Source: an uncultured Gemmatimonadales bacterium
GTDB taxonomy: Bacteria > Gemmatimonadota > Gemmatimonadetes > Gemmatimonadales > GWC2-71-9
Direction: 5' to 3'
DNA: 64,000 bases
Assembly: GCA_963844035.1 (NCBI GenBank)
Contig: CAWJMT010000035.1
Span: 64,001 to 128,000 of the forward strand
Position 1 is the stretch's first letter. The number at the start of each line of letters is the position of its first letter. The translations under genes and the position numbers were made by a program. This document shows positions 35,054-37,844 of the stretch, piece after piece. A model generated the notes under the pieces. The model saw only the letters and a program-made list of their open reading frames with translations. It did no database searches and was not told the DNA's origin.

Positions 35054-35622
35054 GCCACGACACCGATCGACCCAACGATTCCAAAGGCCTCGACCCGAGC
35101 GGGACGGAGGGGGAGCAGGTCGCGGATGCCGTGGAGACGAGCGCTTCGGGAGCCGACGCGCAGCTGGCGGAGCTCACCGATCGGCATCTCCGGCTCGCCG
35201 CCGAGTACGACAACTTTCGCAGGCGAACAGGGAAGGAGCGTGGCGAGCTGTGGGCGAAGGCGCAGGCAGCCCTTCTGGGCCGCCTGGTCGATGCCCTGGA
35301 CGATCTCTCCCGCTTTGCCGGCGTGGACCCCGCACGGACCGACGCCAAGACGCTGCACGAGGGCGTCAACCTGGTGGAGCGGAAGTTTTGGAAAGAGCTC
35401 GAAGCGGCGGGCGTGCGGCGCATGGACCAGGTGGGCGTCGTGTTCGACCCCAACTTGCACGAGGCCGTGACGACGGCGCCGGCGGCCACGCCCGCCCAGG
35501 ACCACACCGTCGGGGCCGTCCTCCAGGCGGGGTATAAGCTCGGGGACCTGCTCATCCGGCCGGCCCGGGTGCAGGTGCTCACCTGGCAAGGGGACGCGGG
35601 ACGAGGGACGGGGGAAGGGTAA
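35050..35622 (+). CDS. grpE: Nucleotide exchange factor GrpE
   Basis: RLAAEYDNFRRR, FDPNLHEAV, QAGYKLGDLLIRPARV. Confidence 0.95.
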   Translation: MSHDTDRPNDSKGLDPSGTEGEQVADAVETSASGADAQLAELTDRHLRLAAEYDNFRRRTGKERGELWAKAQAALLGRLVDALDDLSRFAGVDPARTDAKTLHEGVNLVERKFWKELEAAGVRRMDQVGVVFDPNLHEAVTTAPAATPAQDHTVGAVLQAGYKLGDLLIRPARVQVLTWQGDAGRGTGEG

Positions 35623-36705
35623 TGGCAGCGCCGCGGGACTACTACCAGACGTTGGGCGTCTCGGAGACGGCGACGACCGACGAGATCAAGAAGGCGTTTC
35701 GGCGGCTCGCGAAGCAGCACCATCCCGATCGCAACCCCAACAATCCGCAGGCCGTCGAGCGCTTCAAGGAGGTCAACGAAGCGCACGACGTGCTGAGCGA
35801 CCCCGCCAAGCGGAAGAAGTACGACGAGATGCGCCGCTACGGCGCGTTCGCCGGGGCGGGGGCCGGCTGGGGTGCGGGGCGGCCAGGGCCGGGGAGCGGC
35901 GGCGGTGTCGACTTCGATGCCTCGGACGGGTCCTTTGGGGGGCTCGGCGACCTGTTCTCGTCGATCTTCGGCCGCCGCGGGGAGGGCCGCGGCGGTGAGC
36001 CCGACGATGAGGTCGAGACCACCGTGACGATTCCGTTCCGCGTGGCGGCTCTGGGGGGCAAGGTACCGATCGTGCTGGGGCTCACCGAGGTGTGCCCGAT
36101 GTGCAGCGGCAGCGGGGCCGCGCCCGGAGCGATCGATTTCGACCTGCCCCGAGTGCCGCGGTCGCGGGACCGTTTCGTTCGGCCAGGGCGGGTTCGCGGT
36201 GAACCGGCCGTGCCCGGTATGTCGCGGGAAGGGAAAGGTCCCGTCAGAGCCGTGCCCGACCTGCCGCGGATCGGGGGACGTGCGCGTCGAGAAGCGCCTG
36301 GCGATTACGGTGCCGCCCGGGACCGAGGACGGCGCGCGCATGCGCTTGAAGGGCGAAGGCGCACGGGGGCGCGGGGACATCGTGGTGGTGTTTCAAGTCG
36401 AGCCCGATCGGTTTTTCAGGCGTGAGGGGCTCGACGTGCTGTGCGTGGTGCCGATCAACGTGATGCAGGCGATGCTCGGCTCCAAGATCAAGGTCAAGAC
36501 GCTCGATGGGCGGAAGGTCGTGCTGCGCATCCCCCCCGGCACGCAGCACGGTCAGAAGTTCAGGATCCCGGGGCAGGGCATCGAGAAGATGGGCCGACGC
36601 GGCGACCAGTACGTCGAGGTGCGGGTGGAGATTCCGGAAAACCTGACGGTGGAACAGGAAGCCGCGGCACGCGAATTTGCGGACAAGGTGGGGATCAAGC
36701 ACTAA
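35622..36705 (+). CDS. dnaJ: DnaJ chaperone (frameshift near 36135)
   Basis: J-domain DYYQTLGV..HPD; four CxxCxGxG repeats across two frames; C-terminal IPPGTQ. Confidence 0.9.
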
Positions 36706-36719
36706 CTTGGCCCCTCCCC

Positions 36720-36749
36720 TTGCTCAGAGGTCGGCGGCCATGATAGTCT
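36720..36749 (+). promoter_or_regulatory. Sigma70-type promoter upstream of the leader/tRNA-Asn unit
   Basis: TTGCTC (36720-36725), 18 nt, TAGTCT (36744-36749), with an extended-10 TG at 36741-36742. Confidence 0.55.
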
Positions 36750-36756
36750 TGGCCCC

Positions 36757-36813
36757 GTGAATTCACCTGCCGTGCGTGCGCCGAATACCAACGCAGGGAA
36801 CCGCGTCGCGTAG
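36757..36813 (+). CDS. Putative Asn-rich leader peptide MNSPAVRAPNTNAGNRVA (leaderless GTG)
   Basis: 18 codons with Asn at 2, 10, 12 and 15; GTG is 7 nt after the -10; the stop lies in the antiterminator arm. Confidence 0.6.
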   Translation: MNSPAVRAPNTNAGNRVA

Positions 36814-36838
36814 CCCGTCGATCAGGTTCACGAAGGCT

Positions 36839-36866
36839 ACGCCCCCGGCACTGGGGGCGTTTTGTT
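36839..36866 (+). terminator. Intrinsic terminator (putative attenuator) upstream of tRNA-Asn
   Basis: ACGCCCCC-ggcact-GGGGGCGT followed by TTTGTT. Confidence 0.8.
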
Positions 36867-36870
36867 GGGC

Positions 36871-36933
36871 AGACGCTAAGACGGTAAGACGCTAAGACGG
36901 CCAGACGCTCGCATAGCGTCTTAGCGTCTTAGC
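36871..36933. repeat. Octamer tandem repeats forming a hairpin
   Basis: AGACGCTA/AGACGGTA units followed by inverted TAGCGTCT TAGCGTCT TAGC. Confidence 0.75.
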
Positions 36934-36950
36934 AACGTACGACTGTTTTT

Positions 36951-37023
36951 TGGGGTGTAGCTCAATTGGCAGAGCGCCCGGCTGTTAACCGGGAAGTTGG
37001 AGGTTCGAGTCCTCCCGCCCCAG
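36951..37023 (+). tRNA. tRNA-Asn (GTT); CCA not encoded
   Basis: Cloverleaf: TGGGGTG/CGCCCCA acceptor, GCTC/GAGC D stem, CCCGG-CT-GTT-AA-CCGGG, GGAGG-TTCGAGT-CCTCC, discriminator G. Confidence 0.97.
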
Positions 37024-37079: not shown

Positions 37080-37844
37080 GTGTTGACAGCTTCGCGTGGG
37101 ATCGGAATGTATCTGACGCTTGCCGGACTGGCCGCCTTCGTCGCGGCCTGCCCGGGCAAATCCCGCAAGGCCGCGCCACCACCGGCGCCGGCGCAGAAAT
37201 CGGTCTCCAAGAGCACGCGCGCCATGGCCGAAAGCATCAACGTCCTCGAGCAACACACCGCGCGCCTCGAATTGCGGCTCCTCGAAGGGGAAGCGCAGGT
37301 CGGAGACCTCCAGGCCAAGCTGGACGAGGCCCGGCAGGAGGTGGTGCGGGCGATGGCGAAGCTGCAGACCCTCGCGAGCAAGGCGGAGGCAGCATCCGCG
37401 ATCGCTGAAGCGGAGATCGCCATTGAGGCGCTGAAAACCGCCGCCGGCCAGCTCGGGACGGCCGAGGCCGCGCAAGCCGAGCAGCTGTTGCGCATGGGCA
37501 CGAAGGAGTTTGACGAGGAGAACTACGGCGGCGCGCTCTACCTGGCGAATCAGGCCAAGAACCTGGCGGCCCGGAGCCAGACGCGCTTGACGAGCTCGGT
37601 CCGCGGGGCGCTGCGGCCCGGTGAGGTGCTGTTCGCGCTTCCCCTGCAGCTCCAGACCCTGGTGCGCGGCAACGTGCGCGACGGCCCGGGCACCAATTTC
37701 AAGGTGCTGTTCACGCTCGATGCGGGGACGCCGCTGCTCGGGTATTCGTACGCGGATGTGTGGGTGCGGGTGAGTGACGAGAGCGGTCGCAGCGGTTGGA
37801 TCTTCTATACGTTCGTCGGGAAACGGCAGGGGGCGAGCCACTAA
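37080..37844 (+). CDS. Lipoprotein with coiled coil and C-terminal bacterial SH3 domain (alternative start ATG 37107)
   Basis: Lipobox VAAC; NVRDGPGTNFKV..WVRV..SGWI. Confidence 0.75.
   Translation: MLTASRGIGMYLTLAGLAAFVAACPGKSRKAAPPPAPAQKSVSKSTRAMAESINVLEQHTARLELRLLEGEAQVGDLQAKLDEARQEVVRAMAKLQTLASKAEAASAIAEAEIAIEALKTAAGQLGTAEAAQAEQLLRMGTKEFDEENYGGALYLANQAKNLAARSQTRLTSSVRGALRPGEVLFALPLQLQTLVRGNVRDGPGTNFKVLFTLDAGTPLLGYSYADVWVRVSDESGRSGWIFYTFVGKRQGASH

Follow-up and report, generated by a model that had tools for sequence, protein, structure and literature searches.

A predicted asparagine-sensing attenuator upstream of a second tRNA-Asn gene in Gemmatimonadota

In trp/his/pheM-type attenuators, a ribosome stalled on a leader peptide sets the choice between an antiterminator and a terminator. 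An arrangement of this geometry had been proposed in a first-pass annotation of the window (the whole stretch of 64,000 nucleotides analysed here), in which a short reading frame with several Asn codons and a terminator precede a tRNA-Asn gene, and the tRNA was thought to feed back on its own transcription. The locus raises the question of whether a tRNA may be the regulated product of such an attenuator and, if so, what need it would serve. From the comparison of sequences, we consider it probable (about 85%) that the window holds a ribosome-stalling transcription attenuator with a second tRNA-Asn as its regulated product.

Layout of the locus and its recurrence

The following features were assigned around the leader.

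36199..36705, plus strand: 3' part of dnaJ, the upstream gene (identity from sequence, by a J-domain HPD motif in the ORF at 35622)
36720..36749, plus strand: predicted sigma-70-type promoter (-35 TTGCTC at 36720-25, 18 nt, -10 TAGTCT at 36744-49)
36757..36813, plus strand: predicted leaderless leader ORF of 18 codons, MNSPAVRAPNTNAGNRVA followed by the stop (GTG at 36757, TAG at 36811-13)
36808..36842, plus strand: predicted antiterminator helix (GCGTAGCC at 36808-15 pairs with GGCTACGC at 36835-42; stop codon inside the span)
36839..36866, plus strand: intrinsic terminator (hairpin 36839-60, 9 bp, 7 of them G-C, then a U-rich tail; hairpin base and antiterminator overlap)
36869..36945, no strand assigned: palindromic REP-like multi-copy repeat between terminator and tRNA (fold z -5.4)
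36951..37023, plus strand: tRNA-Asn(GTT), paralogue 2 (CCA not encoded)
37107..37844, plus strand: SH3-domain lipoprotein-like gene (closely preceded by a TTGACA of its own; no relation to asparagine)

Each element claimed in the first-pass annotation was present. The promoter TTGCTC-N18-TAGTCT is followed, 7 nt past the -10, by the GTG of the 18-codon frame with its four Asn codons (AAT, AAT, AAC and AAC, at codons 2, 10, 12 and 15). The complementarity between the leader end and the terminator region was recovered in the fold together with its CGT/ACG extension, the inner pairs of which lengthen the predicted antiterminator helix; the terminator at 36839-36866 shares bases with that helix, and the exclusive pairing changes in step between lineages. 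The next gene is indeed the tRNA-Asn(GTT) at 36951-37023. Overlooked had been the repeat at 36869-36945 and two further tRNA-Asn genes in the genome. The promoter carries a TG extended -10 at 36741-42 (TG-A-TAGTCT) and scores below the threshold of a strict sigma-70 scan, which found none; no terminator was called by scan between dnaJ and the leader, and in an Rfam scan of the window the tRNA alone reached its gathering score, with no riboswitch and no T-box. The equilibrium fold of the window leader alone gave a z of about 0 against shuffles. Because the promoter is sub-threshold and the window fold no better than shuffles, the case rests on comparison, and it is conservation in relatives that makes the arrangement more than chance.

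A contig of a close strain, assembled from an RNA library, spans 36733-36869, differs there by 4 substitutions without any indel, keeps the frame and the Asn codons, and joins the leader region to the tRNA via 4 nt. The window leader is therefore no assembly error, a confirmation that matters because the assembly has broken frames in dnaJ (window 35622-36705, near 36300-36425), asnS (G000:C3:80012-81282) and gltX (C35:242924-243715), a pattern that suggests indel errors in the assembly. Since the contig already begins at 36733, before the predicted start, it marks no start site; it may be DNA-derived. The RNA runs were used as contigs (best share 0.16), in which neither start, end nor level is readable. 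The 4 nt of the close-strain contig stand where the window has the repeat 36869-36945, which is therefore probably mobile or recently inserted. It is made of 8-nt units, has related copies on at least nine contigs of the genome and lies outside the switch.

A pattern for the paralogue tRNA type gave 150 matches in Gemmatimonadota. Removal of 13 short or duplicate ones left 137 non-redundant loci, each preceded by 200 nt or more of sequence; one genome without a leader at its locus (G020) is counted in this denominator and in the 61-genome tallies below. These loci were passed through a filter blind to Asn (TTG-type -35, TAnnnT -10, start 3-14 nt on, 10-35 codons in the ORF, no more than 85 nt to a terminator). 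Thirty of the 137 passed, and 28 of the 30 leaders contained two or more Asn codons (2-7). Asn took up 124 of the 608 in-frame codons (20.4%), as against 2 in each of the two alternative frames and a genome-wide use of 2.08%. Other residues counted in the same 608 codons were Asp (13), His (6), Tyr (1) and Lys (1); a queuosine sensor was rejected, His, Tyr and Asp codons not being enriched. The stop was TAG at 28 of the 30 loci, the start lay 3-11 nt past the -10, and the promoter spacing TTG(A/C)nn-N16-19-TAnnnT recurred in all 30, this pattern being part of the filter. Asn was kept in frame while the DNA diverged, and the attenuator geometry was kept across Gemmatimonadales, Gemmatimonadaceae and Longimicrobiales. 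No second promoter was found from stop to tRNA in the 30 filter-passing loci.

A relaxed pass that required Asn, and so was not blind, added 9 leaders. Among 23 newer loci, 7 passed the blind filter, each with 3-5 Asn codons and a TAG stop and all from one genus; 20 further loci yielded an Asn-rich leader in 3 and none in 17. By either filter, a leader was absent from 98 of the 137 paralogue loci, and a 99th locus (L069) passed the filter with no Asn. In 39 of the 107 loci failing the blind filter, the tRNA lies no more than 60 nt from a promoter. In a genome of the same genus as the source (locus L002, G003), the 200 nt upstream of tRNA-Asn retain promoter and terminator without an ATG or GTG start and without Asn codons; this copy of the leader is decayed or rewired. 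Two other genomes (L265 and L266, in G210 and G122) have 34-codon leaders rich in Asn, Lys and Asp with a TAA stop before the paralogue, which may sense more than one amino acid.

When the source genome as a whole was scanned blind to Asn, a terminator followed at 5 of 59 sites with promoter, start and short ORF, the window site being the only multi-Asn one. No convincing leader was found before the other tRNA genes among 67 ARAGORN calls, and the genome-wide blind scan added none. Elsewhere the genome has leaders built in the same way. One leaderless leader rich in Tyr, Phe and Trp, with a terminator, precedes a DAHP synthase gene (L187:177-330, G000:C5:254476) and, judged by its sequence, is an ordinary aromatic attenuator. 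An Ile-rich one with a terminator lies on the minus strand before a gene that, from its translation, is citramalate-synthase-like (L188, G000:C4:335313). A third, also on the minus strand, has five Cys codons and a terminator (L189, G000:C36:83214) and is followed by porin, sulfate-binding and permease-like genes (sulfate uptake, from translations). With three other cognate-codon leaders, the organism appears to use the leaderless design for ordinary amino-acid control.

Pairing and the modelled switch

In the mechanism that we propose, a ribosome would load on the leaderless transcript. With charged Asn-tRNA plentiful, it would reach the TAG and mask the 5' strand of the antiterminator, so that the terminator would fold and the RNA would end near 36865. 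With Asn-tRNA short, it would stall at Asn10 or Asn12 (stall sites in relatives would lie mostly 7-16 codons before the stop), the last leader codons would pair with the 5' arm of the terminator before the 3' arm is made, and, with the antiterminator formed, RNA polymerase would read through into the tRNA.

Pairing was evaluated in 38 leaders, that is, the blind 30 without the Asn-free L069 plus the 9 non-blind ones. In the relatives, the 3' end of the leader, from its final codons to the stop, pairs with the terminator's 5' arm and loop, through sequences that differ by lineage. When leader ends were swapped among the 38, with full loops, the own pairing exceeded the swapped one in 626 of 703 pairs, a value that none of 5000 permutations reached; such values are not true probabilities, since kin are not independent. 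The control, using the first 22 nt of the ORF, gave 344 of 703 pairs. An earlier version of the test, with windows that fell short of the loop, had given a median rank of 5 of 37 and a place in the top three for 13 of 38. For 35 of the 38 leaders, the antiterminator folded better than with shuffled leader ends when the 3' arm of the terminator was not yet present. The window copy is weaker, 6 of 40 shuffles of its leader end folding equally well, and the caveat that helix and terminator overlap by only about 4 bp holds there; the overlap is 9-13 bp in many relatives.

The stalling model places the edge of the ribosome, by assumption, 12 nt beyond the A site. Across the leaders, the terminator arm was sequestered with a value of about 0.8 for stalls at least 9 codons before the stop, 0.68 at 7 and 0.51 at 6; at the stop it was 0, partly by construction. 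Asn codons are rarer where a ribosome would cover the antiterminator pairing, and only 7 of 164 fall in the last six leader codons. The placement of control codons thus fits a model in which stalling frees the strand and finishing covers it. Asn15 of the window is the exception: as had been cautioned, a stall there covers the arm (0.00 sequestered), and stalls at Asn10 (0.72) and Asn12 (0.53) leave it free in the model. At full equilibrium, the mean probability of the terminator was 0.47-0.63 for upstream stalls versus 0.96 at the stop, and in the window it was 0.89 at Asn10, 0.61 at Asn12 and 0.98 at Asn15. At equilibrium, then, the terminator still wins in the window; because it often does so among the leaders, many copies would have to switch kinetically. 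With no ribosome, the mean terminator probability was 0.67 and mean sequestration 0.72, with a wide spread.

The tRNA is the sole constant element downstream of the leader, the other downstream genes being mixed. The annotation had also cautioned that a regulated asn gene might once have followed the tRNA; none turned up, as no Asn-related Pfam family was found among 51 ORFs at 26 of the 38 loci (the other 12 are without downstream DNA). The results support the conclusion that none of the three caveats, on overlap, Asn15 and a former asn gene, overturns the attenuator reading.

The tRNA paralogue and asparagine supply

The annotation had implied a single tRNA-Asn measuring itself. The attenuator part of that claim stood, as a reading of sequence; the self-measuring part did not, because the regulated gene is a second paralogue and another tRNA-Asn copy is promoted directly. 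The acceptor stem of the window tRNA reads U1-A72, G2-C71, G3-C70, G4-C69, G5-C68, U6.G67 and G7-C66, with G73, and is near-invariant among paralogues, in which anticodon and T stems vary. A housekeeping tRNA-Asn, marked by C2-G71, turned up in 45 of 61 genomes and shares U1-A72 with the paralogue; 9 of the 11 leader-bearing genomes in this set hold both types. Among 30 housekeeping loci (27 with full upstream DNA), none had a promoter plus short ORF, and 15 had promoter matches, all within 50 nt of the gene.

Several observations concern the history of these tRNAs. In 19 of 37 leader-bearing copies (e.g. L008, L013 and L021), the D stem has G11-C24 for C11-G24, a compensatory swap. The third tRNA-Asn(GTT) of the source genome, of another type (G000:C35:5385-5459), has an AT-rich stretch after it, of the kind frequently seen at the borders of integrated elements. 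The 3' half of the paralogue is repeated several kb downstream in two genomes (L190 at G039:C2:746291; G111:C8:85448); given these repeats and an integrase that follows the tRNA in L021, the paralogue gene is also an integration site. Overall the paralogue is nearer a tRNA-Trp (score 56 of 73) than tRNA-Asp (48), and the source genome has two tRNA-Trp(CCA) types with unlike acceptor stems, one of them the nearest relative of the paralogue. This kinship hints, in sequence, at an anticodon switch at the origin of the paralogue. A tRNA-Gln-derived acceptor was rejected, the acceptor of the genome's tRNA-Gln being different.

We surveyed 301 Gemmatimonadota genomes (including G095 and G208, both paralogue-positive), of which 150 have the paralogue, 40 canonical AsnB and 10 AsnA. 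The paralogue occurred in 0 of 40 AsnB genomes, 1 of 10 AsnA genomes (G055, which has both) and 149 of 253 with neither synthetase, in counts to which kin do not contribute independently; the other 104 genomes with neither synthetase are without the paralogue as well. No conclusion hinges on G020, G095 or G208 alone. Within one family (f7), the genus-level contrast of 0/5 versus 5/13 was not significant (p 0.25). A single tRNA-Asn was present in 4 of 5 paralogue-negative genomes checked, and AsnB-like paralogues in 53 of 61 relatives. No AsnA-like enzyme that could serve as an alternative scored over the cut-off, and this candidate was rejected. The source genome, at 84% completeness, has AsnRS, GatB and one AspRS; GlnRS, AsnA and canonical AsnB were not found in it. 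Of 11 genomes in which gatB and glnS were tested, the four with AsnB all had GlnRS and lacked a full GatB; of the five with the paralogue, four had a full GatB and three of these also GlnRS, a combination that makes Asn the likely job of GatCAB. One leader-bearing genome (G013) had only a gatB fragment, and two with both GlnRS and GatB (G057 and G099) have the paralogue without the leader. In Bdellovibrio, too, GlnRS plus GatB points to tRNA-dependent Asn synthesis, according to PMC4206432.

The U1-A72 pair, the GatCAB determinant according to PMC1635274, occurs here together with GatCAB in the genome, as expected of a substrate of the indirect Asn-tRNA pathway and equally in the housekeeping copy. 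G2-C71 is a minor AspRS determinant conserved in bacterial tRNA-Asp, and is listed for Gln and Trp too, according to PMC9976931. The AspRS motif was RRDLG, as in E. coli, in 42 of 42 matches and not the RRDHG of Asp/Asn-ligase structures. It was the same in paralogue-positive and -negative groups, so that a motif tracking the paralogue was rejected, and a second marker position was without Lys in 30 sequences; His/Gly residues are the AspRS markers in question. An archaeal-type AspRS2 was likewise rejected, none scoring over the cut-off in 301 genomes.

As to purpose, the reading that we favour, with less certainty than the attenuator itself, is that in lineages without AsnA and canonical AsnB the paralogue, with its Asp-like acceptor stem and its GatCAB determinant, would be a dedicated carrier for asparagine synthesis by AspRS and GatCAB, induced through the attenuator. 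We hold this tentatively, at somewhat short of even odds. Speaking for it are the distribution of the paralogue relative to AsnB and AsnA, the GatB and GlnRS content of the genomes tested, and the U1-A72 and G2-C71 pairs; weighing against it are the E. coli-like AspRS motif, the U1-A72 pair of both tRNA-Asn types, the 104 genomes without synthetases or paralogue, G055, the frequent AsnB-like paralogues, the f7 contrast, the nearness of the paralogue to tRNA-Trp, the gatB fragment of G013 and the leaderless paralogue loci of G057 and G099. As an asparagine-making carrier, the tRNA would occupy the place of the biosynthetic gene in trp/his-type operons. The same attenuator could instead drive a plain booster, an AsnRS-charged paralogue made when tRNA-Asn itself is limiting because anticodon nucleases cleave it, because it is under-modified or because foreign mRNA rich in AAU makes heavy demands on it. 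AsnRS is present in 57 of 61 genomes, tgt is present and AspRS carries the Leu motif, all of which fit a booster, as does the weighting of leaders to the wobble-read codon seen in AAT:AAC counts of 67:57 against 1827:7701 genome-wide. However, extra tRNA gives no relief from asparagine lack, and a booster leaves unexplained both an acceptor stem that is unlike that of the housekeeping copy and stays near-invariant as anticodon and T stems vary, and the absence of the paralogue from all 40 AsnB genomes. We regard it as a serious possibility that nonetheless falls on the doubtful side.

Three readings appear far less probable. Deliberate mischarging of the paralogue (e.g. with Glu/Gln), rescuing stalls at Asn codons by mistranslation, would fit its nearest relative in the genome being a tRNA-Trp and acceptor pairs that match the Gln (U1-A72, G2-C71, G3-C70, G73) and Trp identity pairs listed in PMC9976931; the same text gives U34/C34 elements as needed by those enzymes, which the GUU anticodon lacks, and the genome has one GluRS locus, no GlnRS found and a tRNA-Gln with another acceptor, making this very unlikely. 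Somewhat less likely again is an arrest peptide that responds, within the exit tunnel, to a metabolite or an antibiotic instead of the supply of Asn-tRNA: an N-R-N motif recurs, the leader end is Arg-rich and Arg makes up 16% of codons, but the peptides differ freely in sequence, in length (15-28 codons) and in how their Asn residues are spaced, Asn alone is strongly enriched, the terminal Arg/Gly/Ala codons are those that form the helix, and the regulated target is the cognate tRNA. Least probable is chance or decay, with a terminator that merely ends dnaJ transcription and a tRNA served by its own unseen promoter. The lack of a called terminator right after dnaJ, the weak window fold and the decayed G003 leader speak for it; against it, the design recurs behind other upstream genes, in-frame Asn is enriched ten-fold in the blind set, and the close strain keeps frame and Asn codons and leaves no room for a tRNA promoter, as only 4 nt replace the repeat. 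For the family, this reading is largely refuted.

Relation to known systems

If confirmed, tRNA supply could be set by the decoding speed of the tRNA's own codons. If the carrier role were true, the locus would be an amino-acid biosynthetic operon whose sole gene is a tRNA, the indirect Asn pathway would have been reached by reshaping a tRNA with the synthetase unchanged, and annotation of the Asn pathway from enzyme content and AspRS motifs could miss a route through a specialised tRNA. Loss of AsnB with presence of GatCAB gives a testable reason why asparagine recurs in such leaders. Outside subscription journals and supplements, the literature searched reported no attenuator or T-box controlling a tRNA gene and nothing on GatCAB of Gemmatimonadota; supplementary motif tables (e.g. 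of PMC8632094) could hold a tRNA-gene leader. The likely novelty lies in the target, an additional tRNA-Asn paralogue with U1-A72 and G2-C71 that exists alongside a housekeeping copy transcribed directly from its promoter.

Asparagine is made on tRNA by a single bacterial-type AspRS together with GatCAB in Bdellovibrio bacteriovorus and Staphylococcus aureus, as described in PMC4206432. Like them, the lineage studied here has AsnRS and GatCAB, one AspRS and a tRNA-Asn with U1-A72, and AsnA and canonical AsnB were not found; unlike here, that text describes them without a dedicated second tRNA-Asn or attenuator, and charging by AspRS is putative in our case. T-box riboswitches (PMC7778990) also let the charging state of a tRNA decide between terminator and antiterminator; the window has no Rfam T-box match, and sensing would instead use a translating ribosome. 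The leaderless sensor ORF at the transcript start resembles the polycysteine attenuators of mycobacteria (bioRxiv 10.1101/834739). The predicted attenuator uORFC-8-2 before cysS in Rhodobacterales (PMC8632094) likewise responds to whether the cognate tRNA is charged and acts on a part of the charging system itself; there that part is the synthetase mRNA, at the Asn leader the tRNA.

The closest likeness is to trpL, hisL, pheL, thrL, leuL and pheM-pheST, with which the window shares a short ORF rich in the codons of one amino acid. As in trpL/hisL-type attenuators, the antiterminator is exclusive with an intrinsic terminator and the control codons lie upstream of the pairing strand. Unlike in those, the start codon lies within about 10 nt of the -10, the antiterminator spans the stop codon, a consistent protector (1:2) hairpin does not seem to be present (the ribosome-free arm being sequestered at 0.72 on average), the amino acid is asparagine, and the target is a tRNA gene rather than protein genes; the biosynthetic, transport or synthetase proteins of classical operons were not found as targets at the Asn-leader loci. 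Judged by its sequence, the Asn leader thus likely works as a classical attenuator, yet without the protein target of its family.
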